Origin: Candidatus Falkowbacteria bacterium | Lineage (GTDB): Bacteria > Patescibacteriota > Patescibacteriia > UBA11705 > JABHMO01 | Assembly (NCBI GenBank): GCA_018665965.1 | Contig: JABJBF010000023.1 | Span: forward strand, 1 to 64,000 | Reading direction: 5' to 3' | DNA length: 64,000 nt | Part shown: in pieces, positions 1 to 27,409 of the stretch | Numbering within the stretch: the stretch's first letter is position 1 | Layout: every line of letters starts with the position of its first letter | Position numbers and translations under genes: made by a program | The notes under the pieces: model-generated | What the model was told of the DNA's origin: nothing | Seen by the model: the letters and a program-made list of their open reading frames with translations, nothing else | Database searches by the model: none

Positions 1-2
1 AT

Positions 3-986
3 TTTGATAAATTAATGTCTGAGTTGGAAGTGCTTTCAGGTGGCTTAGGCTTTGCTGAACTTAAAGTAAAAGCTGAAGCTGGTGATAAAGAAGCGCTTCA
101 AGTGATGCGCGATTATATTGCGAAGAAAGAACAAATTGTGGAGTTTATAGAAACTAAGGAAATGATAGAAGTGGTCGTGCCAGAACGTACCAAGCGTGGT
201 TCTTTGCTCCCCAAAAGTCCGGATAATCCGCATAAAGATGAAGAGCCAGATCAAGATTATTTAATGCCCGAAGTGGAGCTAACATCACCGGAAAAAGCAG
301 TAGAAGCGCTGAAACAAATGTTTCCTGGATTAAACACAGAAAAGTGGTCAGAGGCATTAGAAAAAGGAGTTGCCCCAGCAATAAAAGCCTGCCAAGAGTT
401 GGGAATAGATCCAGAAAGACTGGTTGTTCATCCTTGGATAAAGCGAGAAGCCTTGTCAAGACTTGGTAATACAAACACAACGCACCACGGAGCATTGATT
501 GAAGAAGTAGTCCTTCCTAAACTTGAAGAATTGTATAAACCCAAAGGAATAAAATTTAAGAATTATATAGAAGGTGCGATGTCAGATGATAACCATCTGC
601 AAATGGAGACGGAATTTGCAAAATGGCTAACAGATAGAGAACAAGAAGTAGACGGTGATATATGCTTCAGTGCTCAGATCTTAGATTTACAGCAGGGATT
701 TAGTCCAGACGCAACAAAACATGAATTATCAAAAAAGTCTAACCTTATGGGGTCAAGTTGTTATCTAACTATGCAAATGCTGTTAACGCAAATACAATTG
801 CAAACAAAATGGGAAGAATTGCATTGGTGGATGTCAGCAGATAAGTATGATTTTGAAGGAGAAGCTCGGTTCCCGTCTGCCTTGTATTGCGGTGTGCTTG
901 GAGTCGGTTTCGAGTTTGTCAGCGCTCGCGCGGATAGCGCTTATACGCGGTGCGGTTCGCTCGTCCTGCCGTTCGAAGTGCTTTAG
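3..986 (+). CDS. Paralog-family protein (5'-truncated by window edge); conserved N-terminal domain '...FDKLMSELEVLSGGLGFAELKVKAEAGDKEALQVMRDYIAKKEQIVEFIETKEM' plus a unique C-terminal domain
   Basis: Reading frame is open from nt 3 (FDKLMSELEV...). The N-terminal ~60 aa are near-identical to the N-termini of the ORFs at 1092, 1902, 4191, 61001, 62124 and 62877. The C-terminal ~250 aa are unrelated to the other members. Confidence 0.6.
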   Translation, partial: FDKLMSELEVLSGGLGFAELKVKAEAGDKEALQVMRDYIAKKEQIVEFIETKEMIEVVVPERTKRGSLLPKSPDNPHKDEEPDQDYLMPEVELTSPEKAVEALKQMFPGLNTEKWSEALEKGVAPAIKACQELGIDPERLVVHPWIKREALSRLGNTNTTHHGALIEEVVLPKLEELYKPKGIKFKNYIEGAMSDDNHLQMETEFAKWLTDREQEVDGDICFSAQILDLQQGFSPDATKHELSKKSNLMGSSCYLTMQMLLTQIQLQTKWEELHWWMSADKYDFEGEARFPSALYCGVLGVGFEFVSARADSAYTRCGSLVLPFEVL

Positions 987-1091
987 TCATGAAGTACATG
1001 CGAAGCATGACTTGCGTATCACTTATCACGTATCCAATAACCAATATCCAATACCAAATAACCAATATTTAATAACCAATAAATAATCATC

Positions 1092-1898
1092 ATGAAAAGT
1101 TTAGAACAAATACAAGAACGCTCACTCCACGCTAACTTCACCGAAGTTCAGCAACAACATTTTGATAAATTAATGTCTGAATTAGAAATAATCTCAGGTG
1201 GTTTAGGTTTTGCTGAGCTTAAAGCAAAGGCTGAAGCGGGAAGTAAAGAAGCACTTCAGGTGATGCGAGATTACATTACCAAAAAAGAGGAGATTGTGGA
1301 GTTTATTGAGACTAAAGAAATGTTGAAGGAAAATGAATTTGGAGTAAGGGAGATACGGGAAAATGATAAGGTTTTTCTAGTAAATTTAAATCCAATAAAT
1401 GGTGGGTATTTTGTCAACTATGCTGTATCTAGTAAGGACACTATAGGGCCATTAACTGTTGATAAGGTAGAGAAAGTAGAGGGGCAGTTGGAACCTAAGC
1501 TGTCTGTGAGAAGAGGTACTAGGACCAAGGATGTTAATCCAATAGATCCAGTTTTTGTAGAAGGGTATTATGTGGCGATAAAGAACACAGAAGAGATAAC
1601 TAGAACTTCCAGTGGTGAGGAATACGTAATTTATTCCTTGGATACAAATAGATTTGGTAGTGTCGAGATGGGAAAAAAATATAAGATGAAGAAAAAAAAT
1701 AATTTAAAGTTTCAAAGTGGGCGGGTTTTTGAACCAAAAAACTTTTTTGTTTCTTGGGCTAAAAGTTTGGAAGAGGAGCAGTATCATCCGACCAATAATG
1801 ATGATAGGTGTATTTGGGTTACTTTAGATGCTGCTTTTGGCGGATCTAATTCTTTTCTTTTAGAGGATTTTGTTAAAAATTTTGAATTAGTAGAATAA
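1092..1898 (+). CDS. Paralog-family protein (conserved ~85-aa N-terminal domain with LMSELEIISGG motif; unique C-terminal domain)
   Basis: N-terminus 'MKSLEQIQERSLHANFTEVQQQHFDKLMSELEIISGGLGFAELKAKAEAGSKEALQVMRDYITKKEEIVEFIETKEM' is shared with 6 other ORFs in the window. Good spacing to the upstream gene. C-terminal part is unique. Confidence 0.65.
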   Translation: MKSLEQIQERSLHANFTEVQQQHFDKLMSELEIISGGLGFAELKAKAEAGSKEALQVMRDYITKKEEIVEFIETKEMLKENEFGVREIRENDKVFLVNLNPINGGYFVNYAVSSKDTIGPLTVDKVEKVEGQLEPKLSVRRGTRTKDVNPIDPVFVEGYYVAIKNTEEITRTSSGEEYVIYSLDTNRFGSVEMGKKYKMKKKNNLKFQSGRVFEPKNFFVSWAKSLEEEQYHPTNNDDRCIWVTLDAAFGGSNSFLLEDFVKNFELVE

Positions 1899-1901
1899 AA
1901 T

Positions 1902-2687
1902 ATGATCAACCCCGAGCAACAATTACAAGAAAATGCACTCCAAGCTAACTTCACCGAAGTTCAGCAACAACATTTTGATAAATTAATGTCCGAGTTGGAA
2001 GTGATTTCAGGTGGTTTGGGTTTTGCTGAACTTAAAGAGAAGGCTGAAACTGGTGACAAAGAAGCCCTTCACGTGATGCGTGATTACATTACCAAAAAAG
2101 AGGAGATAGTTGAGTTTATTGAAACTAAGGAGATGTCGGAAGAACCGAGCGATCCTGATTTTGAAAAAATGCTGGAAGCTCATGAAGAAATTAAACCAGG
2201 AGATGTTTACATTGATACAAGTTCAGGCGAAAGATTTGAGGTTATTGAGGTGTTCGATGGTTCAGATAACGAGGTGTCATCAGTAAATAGAAATAATCGT
2301 GATGGTGTAATAAAAATAACAATACAAGGCAGAAGCAGTTCTAATCCTGTGTATTGTGAAATACCTGACAACGATAGTACTATGGATCTTGTTATCGGAC
2401 TTAGTGAACCTTGTATGGAGTTTTCAGTTTCTGCAAAGCCCAAAAATCGTCATGATGTTTTAGATTTACGTACTTTCGGTGGTTTCTCAGTTGGGGAAGA
2501 GTTTCAAAATAGAAGTGTGGAAGCCACTAAATCAAAAATTAAATATTTTGTTTGGGATAAAGAAGAGAAAAAGACCCGAGTGGTTTTTGAAATGATTCAC
2601 ACTCCAGTAGTTGGTAAAGAGACAAAAGATATTTCGATTTTTGACTTAGGTTTATTCGCAGGACTTTATACTAAAATTGAAAAATAA
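1902..2687 (+). CDS. Paralog-family protein (conserved N-terminal domain; unique C-terminal domain)
   Basis: N-terminus 'QANFTEVQQQHFDKLMSELEVISGGLGFAELKEKAETGDKEALHVMRDYITKKEEIVEFIETKEM'. Lies 4 nt after the previous paralog (tandem). Confidence 0.65.
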   Translation: MINPEQQLQENALQANFTEVQQQHFDKLMSELEVISGGLGFAELKEKAETGDKEALHVMRDYITKKEEIVEFIETKEMSEEPSDPDFEKMLEAHEEIKPGDVYIDTSSGERFEVIEVFDGSDNEVSSVNRNNRDGVIKITIQGRSSSNPVYCEIPDNDSTMDLVIGLSEPCMEFSVSAKPKNRHDVLDLRTFGGFSVGEEFQNRSVEATKSKIKYFVWDKEEKKTRVVFEMIHTPVVGKETKDISIFDLGLFAGLYTKIEK

Positions 2688-2758
2688 ATATGATTAGTGC
2701 ATTAAGTAAATATTTTTACCATTTTTAATTAAATTCTAAAATAAATCCGTAAATTCAT

Positions 2759-4024
2759 ATGCAATCCGTACTCCGTATCTTAGAAAAATTATTAGCCAAG
2801 CTAGCGAAAGCTATCATTAATAAATATCAACCAAAAATTGTTGGTATTACCGGTTCAATGGGCAAAACTTCTGCCAAAGAAGCGGTTTATGCTGTTTTGA
2901 ATGGTAAATTTAATGTTCGCAAAAATATAAAAAACTATAATAATGAGATCGGAGTGCCTTTGACTATTATTGGTGTGGAAACTGGTGGTAGGTCGCCGAT
3001 TAAATGGGGCTTGGTATTTCTGCGGGCTGTAAAACTAATTTTCACCAGACAAAAAGATTATCCTGAAGTTTTGGTTTTGGAAATGGGAGCGGATAAACCT
3101 GGTGATATTGGTTATTTAGTAAATCTATTTCCTTGTGATATTGGGGTAGTTACCAAGATTGGGCCTGCTCACATGGAAGCTTTTAAGACTGTAGAAAAAA
3201 TTACTAGAGAAAAACAAAAAATGGTAACTCATTTAGATAAAGACAAGATTGCTGTTTTGAATTGTGATGATGAATTAGTTCGTGCTATGCATAAAAAAGT
3301 AAAAGCTAAAGTAATTTTCTTTGGTTATAGTGAAGAAGCTAATATCCGTTCAGTTGATTTGCATAATCAGGGTGACGGTATGGATTTAACGGGAATCAAA
3401 TTCAAAATCGCTTATGGTGGAAGCACCGTTCCAGTGGCTTTGCCTGGTGTGGTTGGCGCTCACCAAATTAATTCAGCCTTAAGTGCTGCCGCTGTTGGCA
3501 TTGCCCTCGGAATGAACTTGATCGAAGTTTCTGAAGGACTAAAAAATTACAAAGCACCCAAAGGCAGAATGAGCTTGGTTCAGGGTAAACAGACCTTAAT
3601 TATAGATGATACTTATAATTCATCACCACGCGCTGCTAGCGCGGCGCTGGACGCTCTACAGAAGTTGCAGATTGAGCAGGTTGAGCGAAAAATAGCGGTT
3701 TTAGGTGATATGTTGGAGTTGGGTGATTTTTCTGAACAAGCACACCTTGAACTTGGACAAAAAGCAGCTGAAAGCGAGGTTGATCTATTGGTTTGTATTG
3801 GTCCTAGCCGTGAGTTGATAGCCAAGGGTGCTGAAAAGGCAGGATTGAGCTTAGAAAAAATTATGCAAATTCCGGATTCCAACTTGGCCGCTGACAAGAT
3901 GATTGATATTATTAAAGAGAATGATTTGGTTCTTGTAAAAGGTTCTCGTGGTATGCGTATGGAATTGATTGTTAAAGCATTGATGAAAGAGCCAGAGCTC
4001 GCTGAACAATTATTGGTGAAATAG
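2759..4024 (+). CDS. murF: UDP-N-acetylmuramoyl-tripeptide--D-alanyl-D-alanine ligase (Mur ligase family, MurF-like)
   Basis: Mur ligase P-loop 'GITGSMGKTSAKEA'. 'DDTYNSSP' matches the MurF 'DxYNANP' region. Length 421 aa. Confidence 0.7.
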   Translation: MQSVLRILEKLLAKLAKAIINKYQPKIVGITGSMGKTSAKEAVYAVLNGKFNVRKNIKNYNNEIGVPLTIIGVETGGRSPIKWGLVFLRAVKLIFTRQKDYPEVLVLEMGADKPGDIGYLVNLFPCDIGVVTKIGPAHMEAFKTVEKITREKQKMVTHLDKDKIAVLNCDDELVRAMHKKVKAKVIFFGYSEEANIRSVDLHNQGDGMDLTGIKFKIAYGGSTVPVALPGVVGAHQINSALSAAAVGIALGMNLIEVSEGLKNYKAPKGRMSLVQGKQTLIIDDTYNSSPRAASAALDALQKLQIEQVERKIAVLGDMLELGDFSEQAHLELGQKAAESEVDLLVCIGPSRELIAKGAEKAGLSLEKIMQIPDSNLAADKMIDIIKENDLVLVKGSRGMRMELIVKALMKEPELAEQLLVK

Positions 4025-4065
4025 ATTATTAGGTCTAATTACGTCTGATAATTTAAAAGCGTTGA

Positions 4066-4150
4066 GATTCCGGATCAAGCCCGGAATGACGATCTAGGGT
4101 GGGTCGGCGCAGCACAACTACAAACGTCACTCCGGACTTGATCCGGAGTC
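4066..4150. repeat. Imperfect ~25-bp inverted repeat (gattccggatcaagcccggaatgac ... gtcactccggacttgatccggagtc) flanking a GC-rich spacer
   Basis: Each arm is itself a hairpin (ttccgg-N-ccggaa and ctccgga-N-tccggag). The two arms are near reverse complements of each other. Lies between murF and the paralog at 4191. Confidence 0.5.
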
Positions 4151-4190
4151 TGGTGATAAATACTATTAATAGTTTGTCGTTTATTGCATT

Positions 4191-5324
4191 ATGTTAAACT
4201 TAGAACAATTAACTGAAAAATCTCTCCAAGCTAACTTCACTGAAGTTCAGCAACGTCATTTTGATAGATTAATGTCTGAGTTGGAAGTGATCTCAGGTGG
4301 TTTAGGTTTTGCTGAGCTCAAAGCGAAAGCTGAGGCCGGAAGTAAGGAGGCGCTTCAGGTGATGCGCGATTATATCGTTAAGAAAGAACAGATTGTGGAG
4401 TTTTTGGAAATCAAAAAAATTCCTAATGAAACAAAGTCAGCAGAAGAATTGTGCATGGAATTTAGAGGTGAGCCAGTTAAGGTTGCCCACCAGCGTCTAC
4501 ATGCATTAATGGAGACAAGTGCTTATATGAAAGGTCATCATATGTTTCGTCAAGGAATAGATTCTGAGGTTGTTTCTCGGGGTTATTCTTCTAAAGAGCA
4601 AATGTTAGGAAAAATAGTAGCTCATATGGCAGGAGATGGAATTTTGGCTGATTCCCTAACCAATGACATACAAGGCACGTTCTATGACCGAAGTATGCGT
4701 TTATTTAAGGCCAATGATAGATTTACAGGATTACAGACTTTTGATGCTAATACACAATTCTTGTCTGTGGTTGCTTTTATGCTAGAGGGCAAAACCCCTG
4801 CTTTTGAATTGGCCAAGTTTAGTGATCGTCTAAAAGACTCTGAATTATATAATAATGATAAGAACGTGTGGAACCGAAGAATAAGTCCGGACGGAGTACT
4901 TGATGGGCAACTGTACGCTGATGATTATTTGATAGAAATTTTAGCAAACTATTTTTTGGGAAAAACAGAGGAAGTTGAAAAATTATATAAAGAAATGGCC
5001 GAAAGACAGGGTGGAGATTTTTGGGGGGATGGGATTGTGCTGGAATCTCCAGAGGCTGATATTTCAATAAATGAACGTAGTAAAGATCTATTACTGGCAA
5101 TTATAACCCAGGCTTTGGTGGCTGACCCGCAAAAAGCTTACGCCCGATGGCTCAAAGGCAAAGAATTAGATTTGTATGATAAGGATAAAAAATTATGGTA
5201 TGAACGTAAAAATCATAGAGAAGCAGGAAAAATTTATCAGAACCATACAGTTGAAAATGAATTATTAGATATTATGGCGGAAGCGATTTTCATTAAACTT
5301 GGCTTGCATGATGATATTGAATAG
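4191..5324 (+). CDS. Paralog-family protein (conserved N-terminal domain; C-terminal domain of the subfamily shared with the 61001 and 62877 paralogs)
   Basis: N-terminus 'MLNLEQLTEKSLQANFTEVQQRHFDRLMSELEVISGGLGFAELKAKAEAGSKEALQVMRDYIVKKEQIVEFLE'. C-terminal motifs '...ANYFLGKTEEVEKLYKEM...' and '...ELLDIMAEAIFIKLG' recur in the 61001 and 62877 proteins. Confidence 0.65.
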   Translation: MLNLEQLTEKSLQANFTEVQQRHFDRLMSELEVISGGLGFAELKAKAEAGSKEALQVMRDYIVKKEQIVEFLEIKKIPNETKSAEELCMEFRGEPVKVAHQRLHALMETSAYMKGHHMFRQGIDSEVVSRGYSSKEQMLGKIVAHMAGDGILADSLTNDIQGTFYDRSMRLFKANDRFTGLQTFDANTQFLSVVAFMLEGKTPAFELAKFSDRLKDSELYNNDKNVWNRRISPDGVLDGQLYADDYLIEILANYFLGKTEEVEKLYKEMAERQGGDFWGDGIVLESPEADISINERSKDLLLAIITQALVADPQKAYARWLKGKELDLYDKDKKLWYERKNHREAGKIYQNHTVENELLDIMAEAIFIKLGLHDDIE

Positions 5325-5391: not shown

Positions 5392-5823
5392 ATGTCAAAA
5401 ACAAGTGTTACAATTTTAGTGATTGTGTGTTTAATTATTTTTTGTGTAATTACCATGTTTCCTGGTTGGTTTCCAATACGACCGTTAGAAGGAGTGTTTA
5501 CCAAGGTTTGCGATGATGTTTTGAAAGGTGAATTTACCAAATTTGATGAAGACGTGTACGTTGGAAGTCTTGGCGTCCCAACGCGGAAAGACTATGTTAT
5601 TTGTGGCAGAGATCCGGCGGTTGACGCTAATGAAGTTTGCTATATTGCACCGATGGAAGAAAGTATAGTTTATGATGGTAATCCTATGGGTTCAGAAATG
5701 GCTGATGAATGTTATCATTGTCAGTACGGTTGGGAATTAGTGAAGCATGGAAAAAAGGTTTTAGGTAAAGTTTGTAAACCGTACAAAAGTATTTGGAGGT
5801 GGAATTATAAGAGCCCTTTTTAG
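5392..5823 (+). CDS. Small Cys-rich protein with N-terminal transmembrane/signal anchor
   Basis: Hydrophobic N-terminus 'VTILVIVCLIIFCVITMF'; 8 Cys in the remainder; no recognisable family. Confidence 0.45.
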   Translation: MSKTSVTILVIVCLIIFCVITMFPGWFPIRPLEGVFTKVCDDVLKGEFTKFDEDVYVGSLGVPTRKDYVICGRDPAVDANEVCYIAPMEESIVYDGNPMGSEMADECYHCQYGWELVKHGKKVLGKVCKPYKSIWRWNYKSPF

Positions 5824-6159: not shown

Positions 6160-6234
6160 TGGTGACCCCACGGAGAATCGAACTCCGGTTACATGGATGA
6201 GAACCATGCGTCCTAACCACTAGACGATGGGGCC
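6160..6234 (-). tRNA. tRNA-Glu (anticodon CUC)
   Basis: Reverse complement folds into a canonical cloverleaf: acceptor GGCCCCA/TGGGGTC, D-arm GTCT-AGTGGTTA-GGAC, anticodon stem CATGG/CCATG with loop TTCTCAT, T-arm CGGAG-TTCGATT-CTCCG, encoded CCA. Confidence 0.8.
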
Positions 6235-6243
6235 ATAATTATA

Positions 6244-6492
6244 TTATAATTTCCGAAAAAATATTTTTTTTATCTTTTTTCTTCCTGCACAGGATTTCCA
6301 GTATTTTTCTCTTTTGATAGCAGCTTTTAAAGTATCTACTTCTTCAAGAATGTGAGCCTCAAAGGTATCAAAGTTTTTTGTTGATTTTACTTTGCCATTC
6401 TTATGCTCCTGCATTCTTTGTTCAAAATTGTTAGTTTGGCCAGTGTATGTTTTTGTGCGCCATTGATTTATTAAAAAGTATATTTTGTGCAT
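6244..6492 (-). CDS. Small GIY-YIG nuclease-domain protein (UPF0213/Slx1-like)
   Basis: 'IYFLINQWRTKTYTGQTNNFEQRMQEHKNG' matches the GIY-YIG core (GIY...YIG...R..EH..G). Start is taken at the internal Met; the longer ORF-track start would run through the tRNA-derived repeat. Confidence 0.6.
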   Translation of the reverse strand: MHKIYFLINQWRTKTYTGQTNNFEQRMQEHKNGKVKSTKNFDTFEAHILEEVDTLKAAIKREKYWKSCAGRKKIKKIFFRKL

Positions 6493-6568
6493 AGAATTGA
6501 GCTTAATAGTGTTGTCAATATATATGCGTCCCCGACTCGCGTCGATGAGCACCGCGAGTCGAGGCGGG

Positions 6569-6593
6569 CTAACCACTAGACGATGGGGCCATA
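6569..6593. repeat. 25-nt direct copy of the tRNA-Glu 5' end plus 3 flanking nt (ctaaccactagacgatggggccata)
   Basis: Identical to 6213-6237. Together with the intact tRNA it brackets the GIY-YIG gene. Confidence 0.7.
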
Positions 6594-18404: not shown

Positions 18405-19379
18405 ATGAAAAAGTCTGAATTTGATAAATTTGTAGCAAAATTGCTAGAAAAGGGTTTCGTTTATTCTCCAGTTAAAGATGGAGAAATGGTTTTAGTTAAA
18501 CAAATTTTTAAACCGGGGGATATGGACTGGTCTGGTGACATACCATTGAATTCATTCAAGTCAATTGTTTTGCCAGCTAAACAAGATATGGCGACATATT
18601 CCAAGGACGTAGCTAAAGTTATTAATGAAAAAATAAAGCCTATTTTTATTCTTGGATTAAATATTTTAGATTTACGAGCCTTGGCTTTATTTGAACAGGT
18701 TTTTGCTAAAGATTATTATTTTCAAAAGCGTCGACAATCCTTACATTATATTGGTTTAACTAATGGCATTGAGGATGATTTACGTAAATACAAAGTGTTT
18801 AATAAAAAATATGAAGAAGATGTGTTAGAGCATCTTATTTTTGATGTTTTTGTTGAAAGACAGAAGAGTGGTAATTTGATTTTGTTTTCCGGCTCGGAAA
18901 AAGGTCAACAGCTTCTGGAAAAAAGTAAAATTGAAGACTACGAAAATATTGAATTTGCTGGATTTATACCTGAGCATGGTCCCAATCCTTTGATTGAACA
19001 AAAAAAGCTAGCAATATTGAACAATCCTGACCACCCACTATGGGATAAATTAGCTAAAATTTGTCTTAGTTGCGGGAAGTGCTCAATCCATTGTCCAACC
19101 TGTTTTTGCTTTGACCAGAAGGATAAGGTTGAATTTGATCAAGTCGTGAAAACACGACAATGGACAACCTGTTTTTATCCAAAGTTTTCTGAAATAACGG
19201 GTGGTAATAAAGAATTGGATTCAGTAAAAAAGAAATTATATTTTTGGTATTATCATAAATTTGTACGCATTCCTGATGAGTTCGATTACTATGGTTGTGT
19301 TAGTTGTATGCGTTGTTACAAAACTTGCCCAGTTGAAATTAATATTGCTGAGAATTTGCAAGAATTGAAAAAAGTATGA
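18405..19379 (+). CDS. [NiFe]-hydrogenase group 3b-like iron-sulfur subunit (HydB/beta-like)
   Basis: Two ferredoxin-like Cys motifs 'CGKCSIHCPTCFC' and 'CVSCMRCYKTCP'. Lies in an operon with hydrogenase small and large subunits. Confidence 0.6.
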   Translation: MKKSEFDKFVAKLLEKGFVYSPVKDGEMVLVKQIFKPGDMDWSGDIPLNSFKSIVLPAKQDMATYSKDVAKVINEKIKPIFILGLNILDLRALALFEQVFAKDYYFQKRRQSLHYIGLTNGIEDDLRKYKVFNKKYEEDVLEHLIFDVFVERQKSGNLILFSGSEKGQQLLEKSKIEDYENIEFAGFIPEHGPNPLIEQKKLAILNNPDHPLWDKLAKICLSCGKCSIHCPTCFCFDQKDKVEFDQVVKTRQWTTCFYPKFSEITGGNKELDSVKKKLYFWYYHKFVRIPDEFDYYGCVSCMRCYKTCPVEINIAENLQELKKV

Positions 19380-20173
19380 AAAATCAATATGCCCTACAAC
19401 CAGCAAAGGTTATTAAAGTAGTTAAAGAAAATTCAATTACCAATACTTTTTATTTTAGTTTGGACAAGCAAAATGAATTAAAATTTTTGGCAGGGCAGTT
19501 TATGCAAATTGGCTTACCAGGTTTTGGTGAATGCCCTATTTCAATTTCTTCGAGCCCAAAGTTGTCAGATAAACATTTTTGTTTAACAATTCGTAGTGTT
19601 GGAGAATTAACTGCTAAATTAAATAACCTGAAGGTTGGCGATAAAGCTTTTGTGCGTGGACCTTTTGGTAACGGATTTCCTGAGGTTACTAAAAATTTAA
19701 TTCTGATCGGTGGTGGTTGTGGTTTTATTCCATTGCGAAGCGTGTTCGAAGAAAATCGCAATCGTAAAGATATTAAGCTTCAAGTGTTGGTTGGTTGTTC
19801 GACACAGGAATCACTAGTATTCAAAAGAGAGTATTCAAAAATAAAAAACAAACATGATTTTGGATTGATTTTGGAAAATGAAACTATTCCCGGGTTTGCT
19901 AAACAAAAAGGATTTGTTACGGACTTAATAAAGAAAAAGAAGTTATTGAAGAATTCGTTAGTGTTTGTCTGTGGGCCAGCGATAATGTACAAGTTCGTTG
20001 TGAAAGAACTTTTGGCCAAAAAGGTTGAGCCAGCTAATATGTATTTTTCATTGGAAAAAAGAATGCATTGCGGAGTAGGAGTGTGTCAGCATTGTGCTAT
20101 TGGGTCCAAGTATATTTGCAAAGATGGTCCTGTGTTTAATTATGAATTTTTAAGAAGTGTAAATTATTTTTAA
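19376..20173 (+). CDS. Hydrogenase FAD/NAD(P)-binding subunit with C-terminal [2Fe-2S] motif (HydG/gamma-like)
   Basis: Ferredoxin-NADP reductase-like fold ('LIGGGCGFIP'). C-terminal 'CGVGVCQHC...C' motif as in DHOD electron-transfer / sulfhydrogenase gamma subunits. Confidence 0.6.
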   Translation: MKNQYALQPAKVIKVVKENSITNTFYFSLDKQNELKFLAGQFMQIGLPGFGECPISISSSPKLSDKHFCLTIRSVGELTAKLNNLKVGDKAFVRGPFGNGFPEVTKNLILIGGGCGFIPLRSVFEENRNRKDIKLQVLVGCSTQESLVFKREYSKIKNKHDFGLILENETIPGFAKQKGFVTDLIKKKKLLKNSLVFVCGPAIMYKFVVKELLAKKVEPANMYFSLEKRMHCGVGVCQHCAIGSKYICKDGPVFNYEFLRSVNYF

Positions 20174-20193
20174 TGAGTGAATAGATAAAAAAT

Positions 20194-20667
20194 ATGCCAA
20201 CAATTTTCAAAGACAAGGTTCAAACTTATCATTTAATTACTGCGATTCTGGTAATCACCTGTTTGATTTTTCTTATAATTCTAATGTCGCAGTACACAGA
20301 TAAACCAATTGCTTTGGACAACGCTTCAAAAACTGTATTAGCAATTATTTTATTGTTGAATGTTTTCATTTTGGCGTCTTTTCGAGAGTTAAACATCAAG
20401 GTAAGTGATACGCATTTAATCTTCGGGTTTATGAAATTCCGCAAGCGTATTTTAATAAGTAAAATAAAAAAAATAGAATTTAGTGAGTATAAGTTTCAAA
20501 ATTATTTAGGTTACGGTATTCGATTTGGTCGTGACAAAACAGTTGGTTATGTGCCTCGGGGAGGTAAAGGTTTAGTTATTACAGTTGCTGGCCAAAGACG
20601 ACCATACTTTTTTGTAACCAATCGACCTGAAGAATTAAAGGCAATTTTGGAACAACGTAAAAAGTAA
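20194..20667 (+). CDS. Hypothetical membrane protein (2 TM + bPH-like C-terminal region)
   Basis: Hydrophobic N-terminal segments; no catalytic motifs. Confidence 0.4.
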   Translation: MPTIFKDKVQTYHLITAILVITCLIFLIILMSQYTDKPIALDNASKTVLAIILLLNVFILASFRELNIKVSDTHLIFGFMKFRKRILISKIKKIEFSEYKFQNYLGYGIRFGRDKTVGYVPRGGKGLVITVAGQRRPYFFVTNRPEELKAILEQRKK

Positions 20668-20700
20668 CCAGTAAAGTGTAAAGGGTAATAAGGGACTGTT

Positions 20701-21069
20701 ATGAATAAAATAAATAATTATTACGATTTAAAGGCTTGGCAACGTGCATATAAATTTACTTTAAAAGTTTATGAGGTGACATCGGATTTTCCTGCTGAAG
20801 AAAAATTTGGACTTATAAGTCAAATCCGAAGAGCTTCAATATCGATCACCGCCAACATTGCTGAAGGATTTTCTCGCTATTATTTCAAAGATAAGATTCG
20901 ATTTTATTATCAAGCGAGGGGTTCGTTGTCAGAAGTGCAAAGTTTTTTACTTGTTTCAAGAGGTCTTAATATATTAGAAAGCAGTTTTTGTGAAGAGTTA
21001 GTAAATCATGCAGATGAGGTGAAAAGACTTATAAATGGTTTGATAAAATCAATTCAAAAACAGTTGTGA
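20701..21069 (+). CDS. Four-helix-bundle protein (PF05635-like), second copy
   Basis: 'YDLKAWQRAYKFTLKVYEVTSDFP...ISQIRRASISITANIAEGFSR' resembles the 14610 ORF family. Confidence 0.55.
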   Translation: MNKINNYYDLKAWQRAYKFTLKVYEVTSDFPAEEKFGLISQIRRASISITANIAEGFSRYYFKDKIRFYYQARGSLSEVQSFLLVSRGLNILESSFCEELVNHADEVKRLINGLIKSIQKQL

Positions 21070-21102
21070 TTACTTTTTACCTTTTACATTTTACTTATTA
21101 CT

Positions 21103-21870
21103 ATGAATAACAAAATAAAAGTAGGAATATTCCCATTGACCGGCTGTGAAGGTTGCTGTGTTGCGATTTTAGATTTACCAAATAAGTTACTTGAATTGAA
21201 TGAAAAAATTGAAATAGTAAATTTTCGTTTATTTGAAGAGGACGAACACTCACCAGATGAAAAGTACGATATTGTTTTTGTTGAAGGTAGCCCTTTGACC
21301 ACGCGAGATATCAAACAGTTAAAGTTGGTTAGGAAAAATTCAAAGTATGTCATCTCAATTGGTAGTTGCGCACATATGGGTGGAATTTATCATTTAAAAA
21401 TGTATCAAGATAAAAACAAAATTCATGATTATGTTTATCAAGGTGAAAAGGGAATTGAGAATTTGGATGTCAAGCCACTAAGTGCATACGTTAAGGTGGA
21501 TTTTTCTATCCCAGGATGTCCAATAACAGGAGAAGAATTTTATGATTTTGTATACCAGCTATTAATTGGCAAAGAACCAGCTATTACTCAAAATCCAGTT
21601 TGTTATGAGTGCCAAGTGAGGGGACAAAAGTGTGTTTTGCAATATGGTGAGGTCTGTATGGGGCCAATTACGCAAGGCGGATGTGATGCTATTTGTACAA
21701 AATCAATGCAAGGCTGTTGGGGTTGTCGTGGTTTAGTTGAAGATGCGGAAGTAGATAATTTAATCAAAAAATTAAAAGAAAAATATTCAGATAAAGAAAT
21801 CTCTAAATTTTTTGAAGTTTTTGGCGTTAAAGAGTTAGTTTGGAAGAAAAGAAATAAACTTAGAAAATAA
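21103..21870 (+). CDS. [NiFe]-hydrogenase small subunit (group 3-type, HydD/delta-like)
   Basis: 'GIFPLTGCEGCCVAILDL' and 'GSCAHMGG' proximal-cluster motifs; additional Cys clusters at the C-terminus. Confidence 0.7.
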   Translation: MNNKIKVGIFPLTGCEGCCVAILDLPNKLLELNEKIEIVNFRLFEEDEHSPDEKYDIVFVEGSPLTTRDIKQLKLVRKNSKYVISIGSCAHMGGIYHLKMYQDKNKIHDYVYQGEKGIENLDVKPLSAYVKVDFSIPGCPITGEEFYDFVYQLLIGKEPAITQNPVCYECQVRGQKCVLQYGEVCMGPITQGGCDAICTKSMQGCWGCRGLVEDAEVDNLIKKLKEKYSDKEISKFFEVFGVKELVWKKRNKLRK

Positions 21871-21883
21871 TTAGAAATTATTT

Positions 21884-22906
21884 ATGGCATTAACCAAGCA
21901 AGAAGAAAAAATATTAAAGTCAATTGTAATTGCATCGGAAAATAATCCAGAAAAGCCCGAATTTCCAGTTGATGATCCGAAGTTTCCCGCTACTCCAACT
22001 TACAAAATAAAAGTACCTGGATTTAATAATGTTTGGTTGAAGGATGAAAGTCATAATCCAACGGGGACGCATAAAGATAGAATGGCTTGGGAAATGGTAG
22101 TGACTTATCGTGATTTCTTGTTGTCAAAAAAAGGGGGACAAATAAGTAAATTACCCGATGTTTCAATAATCTCATCAGGTTCAGCAGCGATTGCCATTCA
22201 GGTGCAATTGAAAAAGTATAAATTACCTAATTTGCGAGTACTAGTTGATAATCACATTGATGATGAAATTCTGAAATTTTTGTATAAAACTGGTTGCAAG
22301 ATATTTAAAACTGATTTAAGTGAAAAAGCGTTTTCTTGGAATGAAATTTTGCGATTAACAAAAAATAAAAATGGTTTCGATATTACGTCAAGTGAAGCAC
22401 TTGATCCGACAACTAGATATTATGACTGGTTAAGTTATGAAATTATTAACAGTTCTCCTGACTATTGTTTTGTTCCGTTTGGGTCGGGACATTTATTTGA
22501 AAATATTTTAAATATTAATAAACGGGAGGTTGTGACAAGTCATCATGACCCAAGGTTTAGGGGTAGAGTGAATAAATTGAGAGCTTGTAATTTTTTTGGG
22601 TCGACCACTAACAATCCGAAGACTAAGGCTAATAAATTGTTTTCCCCTCATTTGCCCTTTGTTAATTATGATGAGCAGTGGATTAAACTTTATCGCTATG
22701 CTGGTTATTGTGGTTCGAAATCGGATGTTTATAACGTTAAAGAACAATTTATTGATGAGGCCTTGAGAGTTGCTGCGTGCCAACAAATAGATTGTGAGGC
22801 CTCTGGTATTGCTGGGTTGGCGTTGATGCTTCAATTGAAAAACAAATTACCGAAAGATAAAAAAATGTTAATTGTTAATACAGGTAAAATAAAATATCCT
22901 TTATGA
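21884..22906 (+). CDS. PLP-dependent enzyme, fold type II (Trp-synthase-beta / threonine-synthase-like)
   Basis: 'KDESHNPTGTHKDRMAWEMV' matches the 'NPTGSFKDR' PLP-lysine motif. Embedded between the hydrogenase small and large subunit genes. Confidence 0.5.
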   Translation: MALTKQEEKILKSIVIASENNPEKPEFPVDDPKFPATPTYKIKVPGFNNVWLKDESHNPTGTHKDRMAWEMVVTYRDFLLSKKGGQISKLPDVSIISSGSAAIAIQVQLKKYKLPNLRVLVDNHIDDEILKFLYKTGCKIFKTDLSEKAFSWNEILRLTKNKNGFDITSSEALDPTTRYYDWLSYEIINSSPDYCFVPFGSGHLFENILNINKREVVTSHHDPRFRGRVNKLRACNFFGSTTNNPKTKANKLFSPHLPFVNYDEQWIKLYRYAGYCGSKSDVYNVKEQFIDEALRVAACQQIDCEASGIAGLALMLQLKNKLPKDKKMLIVNTGKIKYPL

Positions 22907-24180
22907 AAACTATTAAAATAAATCACATCGCCAAAACTGAAGGCCACCTGAGTTTCGTTGGGGCTTTGCTTGGTAATGATTTTGCTCAAGCTCGCGTGGA
23001 CACAGAAGAGGGAGCTCGTTTGATCGAAGGAATATTATTAAATAGAAAATATTACGAAGCTCCGATTGTAACTTCGCGGATTTGTGGTGTATGCCCGATT
23101 GTGCATAATTTAACTTCAATTAAGGCCGTTGAGGCAGCTTTTAGTGTCAGGGTAACTCCGGAAATAATATTGCTTCGTAAGATCCTAGAAAATGCGCAAA
23201 TAATTCATAGTCATGCAGTACATGCTTTCTTTTTCTCGTTTCCTGATATCGTAGGTGTTAGTAATAATTTTGCTTTGATAAATAAGTATACCAAAGAGTC
23301 AAAAATTGCTCTTCAAGTTCGTGATTGGGGAGTGCAGTTAGCGCGAGTTGTTGGAGGTCGAACCGTTCATCCGATTAATAGTGTAGTTGGTGGATTTAAT
23401 GTTGAGCCAGACTTTGTTGAACTTAAAGAATTAATGCAAAAACAAAAGCAAGTTCTATTACAAGCTAGGCAAATTCATGATGTGGTTTTGAAATATAAAT
23501 TACCAAAGTTTCAAAGACCAACAAATTATGTTTCTTTGAAAAATAAAAATGAATATGCAGTTTATGATGGGAGCATTTATTTCTCAGATAATGATAGTTA
23601 TGATAAAGTCGAGGATTTCCTAAGTGACGTGCAAGAAACTGTTTTACCATATGAAAAAGTTAAACGCTCACATCATATGAAAGAAACGTTCATGGTTGGC
23701 GCTCTTGCTCGAGTGAACAATAATTATGCTCAGCTGAACAAAGAGGCAAAAGCTTCTTGGAATAAGCTAAAAGTGAACTTGCCGTGTTATAATTCATTCT
23801 ATAATATAGTAGCCCAGACAACTGAGATTATTAATTCAATTGAGGAGATAAATAAACTTTTTGTCCAATATGAGAAACTGCGAGCAAAACCGAAGTTTAT
23901 GAAAAACCTAAAAGTTGATTTCATAGTTAAGGCTGGTAAGGGTTATGCTGTGATGGAGGCACCTCGTGGGATCTTGTATCATGAATATGAATTTAACAAG
24001 GTGGGCGAAATTATTCATTGCAATGTAATTACACCAACCGCTATGTTTTTGGCTAATTTGGAAAAAGATCTTGAGAAATATTTGCCGCAAATTAAAAAGT
24101 TGTCAGATAAGAAGAGAGATTCGTTAATAAAAACTTTGATTCGGGCATACGATCCATGTATCAGTTGCGCGACGCATTAA
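22903..24180 (+). CDS. [NiFe]-hydrogenase large subunit (group 3b-like, HydA/alpha)
   Basis: N-terminal 'RICGVCPIVH' (RxCGxCxxxH) and C-terminal 'DPCISCATH' (DPCxxCxxH) Ni-Fe ligating motifs. Confidence 0.85.
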   Translation: MKTIKINHIAKTEGHLSFVGALLGNDFAQARVDTEEGARLIEGILLNRKYYEAPIVTSRICGVCPIVHNLTSIKAVEAAFSVRVTPEIILLRKILENAQIIHSHAVHAFFFSFPDIVGVSNNFALINKYTKESKIALQVRDWGVQLARVVGGRTVHPINSVVGGFNVEPDFVELKELMQKQKQVLLQARQIHDVVLKYKLPKFQRPTNYVSLKNKNEYAVYDGSIYFSDNDSYDKVEDFLSDVQETVLPYEKVKRSHHMKETFMVGALARVNNNYAQLNKEAKASWNKLKVNLPCYNSFYNIVAQTTEIINSIEEINKLFVQYEKLRAKPKFMKNLKVDFIVKAGKGYAVMEAPRGILYHEYEFNKVGEIIHCNVITPTAMFLANLEKDLEKYLPQIKKLSDKKRDSLIKTLIRAYDPCISCATH

Positions 24181-25189: not shown

Positions 25190-27409
25190 TCAAATATTGC
25201 TTACATTGAAAACATGAAGGAGTCCCTTGTCTCCAATTGCGAGGTACTTGCCGTTTGGGCTCCATGAAAGTCTGACAGAATCTGAGACATCTGACTCCAT
25301 AACCAAGACGGCCTTTGTTTGTTGGTCCCTAATATCCATGACAAAGAGAGTATTGTACGAACCTGCTTTTTCATTAAGAGCTGTTTCGTGCTGAGGAGAA
25401 TTTTTATTGATAACAAGATGAGGTTTTTTAGTGGACCAAGTGTTTACATTATAGCCATAAAAGCCAATCGCACCATCTACGAGCTTTTTCTCGTAAATTG
25501 ATCCACTTTTCGCATTTACTGTAAAAATTGTGCCAGACGACAAAGCAATAACTGCTGTTTTGCCGTCTTTTAGCCACCAAAGATCTCTTGGTTCGTCACC
25601 TTTAAACCAGTGGAGTTTATTTCCAGAAGTTGTGTCCCAAATGGAGAAGCTACTTTCTCCGTTTTGTGGCGACTCTGATGAAATTAGATGCCCGCTCGTG
25701 TAGGCGAGTTTATGAATGTCAATCTCTCCTGGGCAAAAAGAATAATAAAGAGACTCGTCATCATCTCGACAAAACTTAAACTCTTTTAGAATTGTTCTGT
25801 CAGAAAGACTGACTTGGATTATTCTTTTTGAGCTTGCAGCAAAGACAGAGGAGTTGTTTACTGGGGTTATCGCGTCAGCTGTGAATGATTGAGTTTTCTT
25901 GGTTTTCGTATTGATAATGTAAATGTGAAAATTTCTACTGTACCCAGCGGATGCTTTAAGGACAATATAATCACCAAACCAACCAAGGAAACTAGCGGCT
26001 TGGGAGCATTCGACTTCCACCCTCCAGAGCTCTTTATCATTTGTTAACGAGTAAATTGCAATCTTGGCGTTTCCTCTTTCCAGTGCACAAGAATGTGAAT
26101 AATAGATTGCAATTTTGGTTTTGCTTTGAGACCAGATCATGTCGGTTATATAGTCGCTGTTATCGTAATTAGATTCAAGCTCATAAGTTGTGCTTTGAGG
26201 AACACCCTTAATAGTCATTTTTGATGAGGTGGTGATAGCCACTGCTTTGCTATCATTTGACCAACGGATGTAACCTGCACCATCACCCCCAGGTCTGTAA
26301 TATGCAATAGAAGTCCAGATAGTGGGTTTGATAATTTTGATGTTAGCAATCGCTGCTGCTGTTTTTTGCTTACTAGCAAGTTCAGCAGCTTTTTCTCGGG
26401 CACGATTTTCAGCTTCGCGTTTCTTATACTCAATTTGTTTTACTACTTCATCAGCTATGCGGTTTTCTTCGGCTGTTATTTGCTGTCTGGCAATTTTTGC
26501 TTGGCGTGTAGCCTCGGCGATTGCTTGTAGTCTGGCAGTCCTCTCTTGACTAGCAGCCTCTTCATCGGCTTGTTTCCTAGCAATTAACGCTTGGCGACGA
26601 GCTTCAGCATTAAGGGCTGCACGAGCCTGGGTATCTGCTAACGCTTTTTCTTTTGCTAGTTTTACCTGACGCTCTCGTTCTAACCGGTCAGCTTCAGCTT
26701 TTTTTTTACGCTCAATTTCCTTTTTTTCTCGCTCACGTTCCTCTTTACGAATATGTTTTTCGTAAATCTCATCAAGAGGAGTAAGCACAGTTTCCTTGTC
26801 TGTGATAACAAGATCTCTGGCTGTCGGTTGGATTCTATTAATTACAAGGTCAAGTTCATCAAGTAGTTTGTCGATTTCATCTTCAGGCATGGTGCTAAAC
26901 ATGGTGATGTCTAGATCAAGTAGTTTTTCAGTTCCTTCTGCGTCGACAATTGCCAGTTTTGTTTTTACTTTTTCCCTATTAGTAATTCCCCAGTAGGCCT
27001 CAGCTTTTTGAATTGCCTCGAGATTATGCTTGATTGAATTACTTGAAATTGCCTGATTGTATTCAACCAAGTTTCTACGGTTACGTTCTTGTTTGATTTC
27101 TTGAACAAAAATAGAAATTTTGTCTTTGTATGTAATAAGTGCGCCAGCCAAGGTTCTTTCTTTTCTTTCGAGTTTTCTGCGAAGATGCTTTACATGTTCA
27201 AGCTTTTCTTCGGAAATTTCTTTTTTTGACTTTGGTGGAGCTTCTTTTTCTTGTGAGAGGGGAGCTGGTTCAGTATTGGAGTTAGGGGAGTTTTTTTCAG
27301 CGACTTCAGGACGAGTTGACTTATTTTTCTTGGCCTTTTTGTCTTTGTTACAAGAACAAGCAAAAATGATAATAATAACAGTAATAATTGTCTTTAGCCA
27401 TCTGGACAT
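25190..27409 (-). CDS. Lipoprotein with shared ~60-aa domain, long K/E/A/R-rich coiled coil and C-terminal beta-propeller (TolB/WD40-like)
   Basis: Lipobox 'IFACSC'. Domain 'LLDLDITMFSTMPEDEIDKLLDELDLVINRIQPTARDLVITDKETVLTPLDEIY'. Beta-propeller-like repeats ('WSPNGKYLAIGD'). Promoter TTGACA-17-TAAGAT and SD 'aaggagg' upstream. Confidence 0.6.
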   Translation of the reverse strand: MSRWLKTIITVIIIIFACSCNKDKKAKKNKSTRPEVAEKNSPNSNTEPAPLSQEKEAPPKSKKEISEEKLEHVKHLRRKLERKERTLAGALITYKDKISIFVQEIKQERNRRNLVEYNQAISSNSIKHNLEAIQKAEAYWGITNREKVKTKLAIVDAEGTEKLLDLDITMFSTMPEDEIDKLLDELDLVINRIQPTARDLVITDKETVLTPLDEIYEKHIRKEEREREKKEIERKKKAEADRLERERQVKLAKEKALADTQARAALNAEARRQALIARKQADEEAASQERTARLQAIAEATRQAKIARQQITAEENRIADEVVKQIEYKKREAENRAREKAAELASKQKTAAAIANIKIIKPTIWTSIAYYRPGGDGAGYIRWSNDSKAVAITTSSKMTIKGVPQSTTYELESNYDNSDYITDMIWSQSKTKIAIYYSHSCALERGNAKIAIYSLTNDKELWRVEVECSQAASFLGWFGDYIVLKASAGYSRNFHIYIINTKTKKTQSFTADAITPVNNSSVFAASSKRIIQVSLSDRTILKEFKFCRDDDESLYYSFCPGEIDIHKLAYTSGHLISSESPQNGESSFSIWDTTSGNKLHWFKGDEPRDLWWLKDGKTAVIALSSGTIFTVNAKSGSIYEKKLVDGAIGFYGYNVNTWSTKKPHLVINKNSPQHETALNEKAGSYNTLFVMDIRDQQTKAVLVMESDVSDSVRLSWSPNGKYLAIGDKGLLHVFNVSNI

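Follow-up and report, generated by a model that had tools for sequence, protein, structure and literature searches.

Constant terminal modules joined to variable partner domains are known from adaptor, export and shell-cargo systems. F-box and SOCS-box substrate receptors belong to the first type, and the F-box itself comprises about 45 residues in three helices. Peptides exported through double-glycine leaders share a consensus core at positions -8, -7, -4, -2 and -1. Shell cargo carries a constant tag, such as the INT domain of vPARP or the cargo-loading peptides of encapsulins. Prokaryotic effector-associated domains (EADs) are typically found on enzymatic effectors and a core NTPase (Kaur, Iyer, Burroughs, and Aravind; PMC8195603).

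The locus described here, a stretch of 64,000 nucleotides from “Candidatus Falkowbacteria” (the window), encodes proteins with a constant N-terminal domain (N-domain) and variable C-terminal domains. These are tentatively proposed to be cytoplasmic adaptors.

Results

Members and genomic context. The seven ORFs that a sequence-only reading had grouped by their N-termini are all present, on the forward strand, and share an N-domain with similarity far above chance. A profile HMM of this domain, run with filters off against every stop-to-stop ORF of the window, returned exactly the same seven (E values of 1e-31 to 1e-47) and no eighth member, the next match having an E value of >1. Cluster 1 starts with an ORF at positions 3 to 986, which is 5'-truncated at the window edge and retains residues F24 to E76 of its N-domain (nucleotides [nt] 3 to 161). 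It is followed by ORFs 1092 to 1898 (268 amino acids [aa]; N-domain, nt 1092 to 1319), 1902 to 2687 (261 aa; N-domain, nt 1902 to 2132), and 4191 to 5324 (377 aa; N-domain, nt 4191 to 4418), the last lying directly 3' of murF (2759 to 4024). Cluster 2, at the other end of the window, begins with ORF 61001 to 62113 (370 aa; N-domain, nt 61001 to 61228), which starts 4 nt past the gene for an AddA-like helicase-nuclease. Next are ORF 62124 to 62855 (243 aa; N-domain, nt 62124 to 62351), whose product is identical to NCBI HN858_00885 of “Candidatus Falkowbacteria,” and ORF 62877 to 63968 (363 aa; N-domain, nt 62877 to 63104), the last gene of the cluster.

Public contigs of the same population extend cluster 1 upstream by two further members, giving the order FtsI, 421 aa, 230 aa, 352 aa, 268 aa, 261 aa, MurF, and 377 aa, in which the 352-aa gene is the full-length form of ORF 3 to 986. 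Cluster 2 consists of exactly three members. This population thus has nine members within ~75 kb, and two more on another contig (HN858_02290 and HN858_02295), and a 190-kb contig of a relative carries at least 10. Family genes are codirectional and tightly packed amid housekeeping genes; the gaps between consecutive genes in both clusters are 3 to 166 nt, with no ORF inside. No conserved nonfamily neighbor was found across the eight loci examined. Gene content varies between relatives and includes a nonsense allele.

The family comprises 53 representatives among 1.84 billion proteins, and all those with a named source are from “Candidatus Falkowbacteria.” It is absent from GTDB species representatives and from viral contigs, and is a tiny lineage-specific expansion so far seen in a few “Candidatus Falkowbacteria” populations only. 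The N-domain has no match in Pfam (even at an E value of ≤1), NCBIfam, or the PDB. Taken together, the evidence favors what the sequence-only reading had kept as its fallback, a new modular family.

The N-domain. The N-terminal ~80 residues of the seven members align without gaps at a mean column identity of 81%, and each N-domain is 77 to 83% identical to that of ORF 1092, taken as the reference. The shared domain is ~76 aa long, acidic (median pI of 5.0 and net charge of about -4), and located at the extreme N terminus in 53 of 53 representatives; a stand-alone N-domain protein (P0055, 87 aa) also exists. Nearly every residue is fixed, charged surface positions included. Many charged and polar residues, among them Q20, Q21, E30, E32, E42, K64, K65, E66, E73, and K75, vary little or not at all, beyond what folding alone requires. 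Because pS between paralogues is near saturation (~0.63) while dN/dS is low (0.03 to 0.14; pN of 0.065), the domain is constrained at the protein level rather than homogenized at the DNA level. Identity is equivalent within (0.62 to 0.76) and between (0.63 to 0.76) genomes, indicating an absence of concerted evolution. Conservation of the N-domain is as tight as that of core housekeeping proteins, a degree of constraint that implies an important shared interaction.

AlphaFold2 models residues 1 to 76 as a compact four-helix domain, which is predicted to fold as an independent unit. Prediction reaches a pLDDT of ~80 when only one sequence is used and of ~90 when an alignment is supplied. The modules are joined by a short flexible linker, frequently starting with Pro78 and predicted with low confidence at residues 80 to 83. 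Fold-level matches of the N-domain are generic helical ones and provide little information.

The C-terminal domains. The sequence-only reading had sorted the C termini into at least five unrelated classes. BLASTP does separate five, one containing ORFs 4191, 61001, and 62877 (25 to 28% identity) and four singletons, but because profiles merge some of these, the true count is three or four. The C-terminal part of ORF 1902 enters a large beta-rich class with tandem SH3/Tudor-like character (E value of 2e-10 in a leave-out HMM test), and that of ORF 62124 enters the same class through close relatives. The beta-rich C-terminal part of ORF 1092 joined this SH3-like class in a single iterative run, and its membership is therefore weak. 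The ~270-aa C-terminal part of ORF 3 to 986 is a separate class with an orthologue, at locus L001, of 69% identity, and the ~296-aa part of ORF 4191 appears helical, as judged from its sequence.

The C-terminal part of ORF 62124 is modeled by AlphaFold2 as two SH3/Tudor-like barrels (mean pLDDT of 81.5), and Foldseek finds that the C-domain barrels resemble tandem Tudor/PetP/PsaE-like barrels. Among 68 members, searches of Pfam, PADLOC, and PHROGs matched WD40 and other beta-propellers, a KOW/SH3 motif, and one HEAT/ARM domain. The recognizable C-domains are nonenzymatic binding modules: SH3/Tudor-like barrels, WD40 and other propellers, WG-like repeats, and helical domains. The architecture described by the sequence-only reading, a constant N-terminal module with variable C-terminal modules in tandem copies, is correct.

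C-domain orthologues in a related genome share 67 to 75% amino acid identity. Their dN is 0.15 to 0.24 and their omega 0.16 to 0.43, compared with a dN of 0.03 to 0.06 and an omega of ~0.065 for MurF and two neighboring genes. The C-domains evolve 3 to 4 times faster than their housekeeping neighbors, yet remain under purifying selection.

Discussion

Proposed function. The proteins of this family are soluble and most likely cytoplasmic, since export signals are absent, although CPR bacteria may have an unconventional export route. It is tentatively proposed, as a reading that falls somewhat short of an even chance, that they are adaptors in which the constant N-domain attaches the variable binding modules to a single conserved putative partner. 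As a docking module, the N-domain would connect every paralogue to the same partner or assembly, with the variable C-domain giving each a different ligand or target specificity. F-box and SOCS-box substrate receptors, like other adaptor-domain families, follow this logic. The proposal is based on N-domain constraint, the predicted autonomous N-terminal fold, the binding-type C-domains and their faster evolution under purifying selection, the lack of a signal peptide or transmembrane segment, and the codirectional packing among housekeeping genes. Against it, none of the proteins encoded in the window has the domain in a hub-like arrangement, and no nonfamily gene is conserved beside the clusters at the eight loci examined. 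Nor did the analysis identify a Skp1/cullin-like or NTPase hub.

Such strong conservation of a helical domain may also mean an intrinsic function, for example, self-assembly, and this is a point against the adaptor proposal. N-domains of different paralogues could associate into homo- or hetero-oligomeric bundles or a filament, forming a multivalent scaffold for diverse binding domains. Inspection of alignment columns reveals heptad-like double hydrophobic stripes in the helices, and the paralogues keep essentially one surface, as a mixed assembly would require. The stand-alone protein P0055 is also consistent with association through the N-domain. However, the AlphaFold2 model is a closed monomeric bundle of high confidence, and generic helical matches carry little information; self-assembly is considered unlikely, if plausible.

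A role for the N-domain as a secretion signal is judged improbable. The signal would serve an unconventional or as yet unseen system, being either cleaved after GG by a C39 peptidase-containing ABC transporter (PCAT) or used in a route like that of type VII secretion systems (T7SS), and the C-domains would be secreted or surface modules for interaction with the host. The sequence-only reading had compared the segment with double-glycine, Nif11, and NHLP leaders, and its “ELxxIxGG” does fit the leader core at -8, -7, -4, -2, and -1 (an example peptide across the site is LMSELEVISGGLGFAELK). Constant helical N-domains with variable C termini in tandem arrays also recall PE/PPE and LXG proteins. 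The quick evolution of C-domains, the variation in gene content, and the nonsense allele are common in interaction proteins, and CPR bacteria live attached to hosts. Nevertheless, six N-domains and three full-length members gave no match at an E value of ≤10 to the NCBIfam leader models named in that reading (TIGR01847, Nif11 TIGR03798, and NHLP TIGR03793).

The GG motif itself is present in most members and is DG in ORF 62124 (loop variant “SDGFGF”), as had been noted, but it is not invariant in the family. In 26% of distinct members, Asp, Gln, or Asn occupies the position of the first Gly (position 36, or -2; among 62, G in 46 [74%], D in 12 [19%], and Q in 2 plus N in 1 [5%]), and distant relatives lack the motif entirely, having “HFGQIKL” in its place. 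The mean frequency of the top residue is 0.82 at positions 14 to 37 and 0.81 at positions 38 to 76, with conservation extending 40 residues beyond GG; because it is equal on either side and collapses only at residue 77, GG is not a module boundary. In the AlphaFold2 model, SGGLGF is the loop joining helices 2 and 3 inside the four-helix domain. A cleavable double-glycine leader was consequently rejected on the lack of an HMM match, the variable -2 Gly, and the position of GG in a folded-domain loop.

Within the window and the loci covered, the genomic context also argues against export. ORF and Pfam scans confirmed the earlier observation that the window contains neither a C39 transporter nor small immunity-like ORFs. 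Pfam scans of the 64-kb window and of the large or adjacent flanking ORFs of loci L007 to L012 yielded no Peptidase_C39/ABC exporter gene, and no C39/ABC gene or EssC-type ATPase was found in the window or the eight loci. The sole FtsK-family gene seen (L007, 4833 to 7295) has 4TM, alpha, and gamma domains and, because of the gamma domain, is assigned as a DNA translocase. Signal peptides and transmembrane segments are lacking in all members, and the N terminus is not hydrophobic. Matches to Pfam WXG100, LXG, PE, or PPE are absent among members, and the turn reads S-[GD]-G-L-G-F. There is also no YxxxD/E motif, as Tyr61 is followed by I-[AT]-K-K-E, with Lys65 at +4 and Glu at +5.

A full-length Major Vault Protein (MVP) homologue is encoded at 10813 to 13728 (Pfam MVP_shoulder, E value of 3e-28; Vault_3, E value of 3.5e-9), 5.5 kb downstream of ORF 4191. 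A protein of a Falkowbacteria metagenome-assembled genome (MAG) matches it with 100% identity, and it is syntenic in related contigs. Any link between MVP and the N-domain family is speculative. The N-domain could target the paralogues to an MVP shell, as the INT domain of vPARP or encapsulin peptides do for their cargo, and the nearby syntenic gene, the co-occurrence of family and MVP in the same Falkowbacteria assemblies, and the occurrence of one constant tag on diverse proteins, which is the hallmark of cargo loading, all fit this. However, >1,780 MVP homologues occur over many bacterial phyla and the N-domain family occurs in no GTDB species representative, so MVP works without the family nearly everywhere. 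In addition, no MVP lies within 10 kb at the six other family loci (L007 to L012), no similarity to a known vault-interaction domain was detected with Pfam, and the MVP shows no lineage-specific feature besides a variable disordered loop. Cargo targeting is accordingly very unlikely. It would be a similarly long shot that the N-domain is a tag loading SH3/Tudor-like, WD40, and helical binding proteins into or onto an MVP vault or, more generally, that it provides the docking in a CPR-specific F-box-like receptor system for a putative machine.

The polymorphic toxin or secreted effector system suggested by the sequence-only reading, in which variable C termini would be toxins for competitors with cognate immunity proteins, has the constant-N/variable-C tandem architecture as its one argument and is largely refuted and hardly credible, as 0 of 68 members match a toxin or enzyme family (Pfam, PADLOC, and PHROGs), the modeled C-domain is a tandem SH3/Tudor-like barrel, the short intergenic gaps leave no room for immunity ORFs here or in related loci, Pfam finds no known trafficking domain (such as LXG, PAAR, RHS, or MIX), a signal peptide is absent, and C-domain orthologues are stably kept between genomes.

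Significance. Many copies of the family are kept in a minimal CPR/Patescibacteria genome. Identification of the putative partner would show what an entire block of “hypothetical” genes does. It might also bring to light a new kind of adaptor logic among episymbiotic bacteria, either an analogue of substrate receptors or a tag targeting proteins to a shell or to cell envelope machinery. If the vault reading were true, a cargo system would be described for a prokaryotic vault for the first time. The analysis further rules out the tempting but mistaken labeling of these genes as encoding double-glycine leader or polymorphic toxin proteins.

Comparison with known systems. Substrates with double-glycine leaders (class II bacteriocins, Nif11, and NHLP) resemble the family in having E-L-x-x-I-x-G-G ~37 residues in and a helical, acidic N terminus. 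They differ in that the family has no leader HMM match, a variable -2 Gly, a conserved block reaching 40 residues past GG, GG in an intradomain loop, no nearby exporter, and “cores” that are folded domains of 150 to 470 aa. Type VII PE/PPE and LXG/WXG100 proteins likewise have a conserved helical N-domain (~80 to 200 aa), diverse C termini, and many tandem copies. Unlike them, the family lacks a WXG, LXG, or YxxxD/E motif, toxin domains, and immunity genes, with no EssC/EccC ATPase seen in the window or the eight loci and no sequence or specific fold match. Shell cargo tags (vPARP INT, encapsulin peptides, and microcompartment encapsulation peptides) share the pattern of one constant tag on diverse proteins with a shell gene nearby. 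The known tags, however, are either short peptides or, in the case of INT, a domain of ~160 aa, and are unrelated in sequence to the N-domain, and known shell cargo is mostly enzymes; here, moreover, the phyletic distributions mismatch and most loci have no nearby MVP.

Eukaryotic F-box, SOCS-box, and DCAF proteins and prokaryotic EADs differ from the family in other respects. The N-domain has no match to the F-box or to Pfam adaptor domains and consists of ~76 residues in four helices. Unlike in EAD systems (PMC8195603), an NTPase or enzymatic domain is present in 0 of 53 representatives (56 to 445 aa, with the domain always N-terminal). As in these systems, a small, noncatalytic, helical terminal domain occurs in many paralogues of one genome, here on at least nine proteins within ~75 kb, with interchangeable partner modules that include WD40 propellers and with lineage-specific expansion.

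Conserved N-terminal domain

Seven ORFs with a common N terminus, all on the + strand, had been recognised in the sequence-only reading, and the ORF listing confirmed each of them: 3-986 and those starting at 1092, 1902 and 4191 (cluster 1), and at 61001, 62124 and 62877 (cluster 2). The first ~80 residues of the seven proteins align without gaps at a mean column identity of 81% (77 to 83% identity to the 1092 member). An HMM of this N-domain, run with filters off, matched exactly seven window ORFs (E values from 1e-31 to 1e-47; next ORF, E > 1) and revealed no divergent hub copy in the window. Differences in the N-domain DNA alignment lie mostly at third codon positions; by the Nei-Gojobori method (52 codons), mean pS between paralogues is 0.63, close to saturation, mean pN is 0.065, and pairwise dN/dS is 0.03 to 0.14. 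The near-saturated pS and low dN/dS indicate that the paralogues are old and that very strong purifying selection at the protein level has preserved their identity. Judged from these alignments, neither recent duplication nor gene conversion nor an RNA element can be its source. The last two, the RNA element as conservation of the 5' ends, are contradicted both by the synonymous sites and by N-domain identity within genomes being equal to that between genomes.

The N terminus had been read as a possible double-glycine export or processing leader, an interpretation that failed on four counts. Leader models (TIGR01847, Nif11 and NHLP) gave no matches to the N-domain. Among 62 distinct members, the first glycine of the pair is variable (position 36: G 74%, D 19%, Q or N 5%; position 37: G 95%), and the distant relatives P0053, P0054 and P0058 carry “HFGQIKLDEL” where the GG loop would be. 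Mean conservation in the same 62 members is 0.82 at positions 14 to 37 and 0.81 at positions 38 to 76, and collapses at positions 77 and 78, where Pro is frequent; this evenness across the GG, followed by collapse, places the module boundary at about residue 76, not at the GG. Finally, the AlphaFold2 model has four helices (residues 4-13, 18-35, 40-48 and 52-74/80; pLDDT of ~80 without an alignment and ~90 with one of 23 sequences), with “SGGLGF” as the loop joining helices 2 and 3, inside the folded domain, and residues 80 to 83 as a low-confidence linker. The tryptic peptide expected across the GG site is LMSELEVISGGLGFAELK.

The N-domain is acidic (median pI of 5.0, net charge of -4). Curated libraries and solved structures contain no detectable relative, a fold search returned generic helical bundles only, and no description was found in the literature searches made. 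Weak matches to YlbF/YmcA-like proteins (NCBIfam E of 0.05 to 0.4; PDB 2iaz, E of 0.058) and to the RDAC family, TraM and Pan3_PK all fall short of the threshold, extend over helical segments only and were not taken as homology. A DNA-binding transcription factor was also rejected, as the domain is acidic and one recognition surface would be common to all paralogues.

Two anomalies were seen within the domain. In P0010 and P0011, short metagenome fragments, the N-domain continues to about Lys46, beyond which the sequence is unrelated (in P0010 it is cytidylate kinase); either the assemblies are chimeric or recombination has taken place inside the N-domain. In L001, an ENA contig syntenic with the window, a CAG-to-TAG change at 10169-10171 turns the near-invariant Gln56 codon of one member (10001-10690, +) into an in-frame stop, the remaining ORF being intact. 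As this nonsense allele occurs on five contigs from different samples (L001 to L005), it is recent and has spread.

Variable C-terminal domains

At least five unrelated C-terminal classes had been proposed. BLASTP indeed gives five groups, with 4191, 61001 and 62877 together at 25 to 28% identity and the other four window members as singletons, but iterated profiles merge 1902 with 62124, so unrelatedness does not hold throughout. The C-domains of 68 members form 24 BLAST clusters, and iterated profiles place 35 or 36 of the 68 in a single beta-rich class, with 1902 and 62124 among them, and 1092 in one of two runs only. In leave-out tests of this class, 1902 was recovered (E of 2e-10), 62124 via close relatives only, and 1092 not at all. 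A profile search with the class found family members and no outside homologues; the 4191/61001/62877 class has no sequence relative in the PDB.

For 62124, AlphaFold2 (mean pLDDT of 81.5) predicts two small beta-barrels past the linker. In the PDB, Foldseek matches these best to PetP, PsaE, NdhS and the tandem Tudor domains of Crb2, UHRF1 and SETDB1, all with E > 0.01; a fold search against viral structures gave nothing but small SH3-like barrels, all from uncharacterised phage proteins. Pfam detected only WD40 or other beta-propellers (four), a KOW motif (two) and Hepar_II_III_N (two) in the 68 members. PADLOC added one HEAT/ARM repeat match and PHROGs nothing meaningful among family members; on these grounds, and given the absence of the family from IMG/VR viral contigs, a defence-system or phage origin was rejected. 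A polymorphic toxin system, suggested by the constant and variable modules, was likewise abandoned, as no toxins, immunity genes or known trafficking domain were found. The reported lack of immunity-like small ORFs in the window was borne out, and none lie between members in the loci compared. Orthologous C-domains of the window and L001 differ at dN of 0.15 to 0.24 (omega of 0.16 to 0.43), the N-domains at dN of 0.07 to 0.13, and MurF and two other neighbours at dN of 0.03 to 0.06 (omega of ~0.065).

Distribution and genomic context

A word index of 5.8 billion proteins yielded 11 matches, all fragments, and an HMM run exhaustively over 1.84 billion cluster representatives yielded 53 (47 below 1e-10; 56 to 445 aa), with the N-domain forming the first ~85 residues of full-length proteins. 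No family member occurs among 185,579 GTDB species representatives, and JGI metagenomes added six further loci (three long contigs). Member 62124 is identical to NCBI HN858_00885, annotated as Candidatus Falkowbacteria bacterium, and the window region is also present on contig JABHIS010000005.1 of GCA_018670895.1. Clusters comprise one to eight tandem, co-directional members, and at least 10 occur on one 190-kb contig; L001 has eight around murF. No non-family gene, as a candidate partner, is common to the eight loci compared.

On same-population contigs, cluster 1 reads FtsI, 421, 230, 352 (the full-length form of ORF 3-986), 268, 261, MurF and 377 (members by length in aa). Cluster 2 consists of exactly three members; after them come a 225-aa gene on the opposite strand, then DciA, a tRNA synthetase and MreBCD-PBP2. 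Public contigs show two arrangements upstream of the 352-aa member, Band7-FtsI-421-230 (L016 and L017) versus a block running from GreA to AspRS and SerRS (L018). The GreA block is found downstream of cluster 2 as well, suggesting that a rearrangement broke the sequence where the family cluster ends. Circularity of the window, with family genes at both ends, is incompatible with the 32 nt that follow the last stop versus ~24 codons missing from ORF 3-986, and with different genes beyond both edges on public contigs.

Family clusters often adjoin cell envelope or shape genes: ftsI and murF flank members in the window and relatives, mreBCD-pbp2 lies four genes downstream of cluster 2, rodZ-like-recA precedes the L007 cluster, murI and rseP flank that of L009, and a Mur ligase and rmlB follow those of L010 and L012, respectively. 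Genes of this kind are frequent in genomes so small, and the proximity therefore hints only weakly at a connection with envelope or division machinery. Directly after 4191 lies a 143-aa Cys-rich protein (5392-5823, +) with an N-terminal hydrophobic segment and no Pfam match, 94% identical in L001, which exceeds the conservation of MurF.

The rest of the window holds ordinary CPR housekeeping genes, including those for MurF, DEAD helicase, HD protein, LexA, DinB, Fpg, BacA, YceG, MetRS, TatD, ATP synthase, CvpA and an AddA-like helicase-nuclease. Two cofactor-independent phosphoglycerate mutase (iPGM) genes stand in tandem (33986-35530 and 35538-37121, both +) after PGK and enolase. The sole tRNA, tRNA-Glu (CTC; 6160-6234, -), adjoins a small GIY-YIG-type ORF (6244-6576, -). 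A NiFe-hydrogenase-like cluster (18405-24180, +) encodes a 4Fe-4S protein, an FAD/NAD-binding subunit, a small subunit, a PLP-dependent enzyme and a large subunit. Between its FAD/NAD-binding and small subunits lie a 157-aa ORF (20194-20667) and one of two “23S rRNA intervening sequence protein”/bAvd-like four-helix-bundle genes (20701-21069, +; the other at 14610-15008, +); no reverse transcriptase was found among the Pfam-scanned window ORFs. Two adjacent large WD40-repeat proteins (25190-27409 and 27521-29341, both -; 739 and 606 aa) lack the family N-domain. The Translin family is mainly eukaryotic and archaeal and unusual in bacteria; one member is encoded at 41656-42231 (+; Pfam E of 6e-19).

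A full-length, 971-aa Major Vault Protein (MVP) homologue (10813-13728, +; Pfam MVP_shoulder, E of 3e-28; Vault_3, E of 3.5e-9) is 100% identical to HOM83_04735, annotated as Candidatus Falkowbacteria bacterium. Its only lineage-specific feature seen is a variable, long disordered loop, acidic and then Lys rich, at about residues 160 to 225. Bacterial MVP homologues have already been described (bioRxiv 10.1101/872010).

Possible function

What remains is a family of soluble, two-module proteins in which the constant module is constrained over essentially its whole surface and the variable module is a binding scaffold wherever recognisable. Tentatively, the most economical mechanism is that the N-domain would act as a docking (adaptor) domain through which a range of binding modules attach to a single conserved partner or assembly. 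The closest rival, which seems unlikely, is that the N-domains assemble with one another. Somewhat less likely again is an unrecognised export route: no export signal is detectable in the family proteins, no member has a hydrophobic N terminus or transmembrane segment, and the window, where the sequence-only reading had already seen no C39 transporter, contains no ABC/C39 exporter or secretion system. That the N-domain is a cargo tag for an MVP vault is possible but unsupported and very improbable, since, despite an MVP gene 5.5 kb downstream of 4191 and syntenic in relatives, MVP is widespread in bacteria (>1,780 matches across phyla, Parcubacteria included), whereas the family is confined to the Falkowbacteria lineage and its other loci have no MVP nearby.

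The family exists as described and is under unusual constraint; for a minimal genome it is large, and it is confined to a narrow lineage. The N-domain itself is without a detectable known relative; the design, a constant adaptor with variable modules and lineage-specific expansion, is already known.
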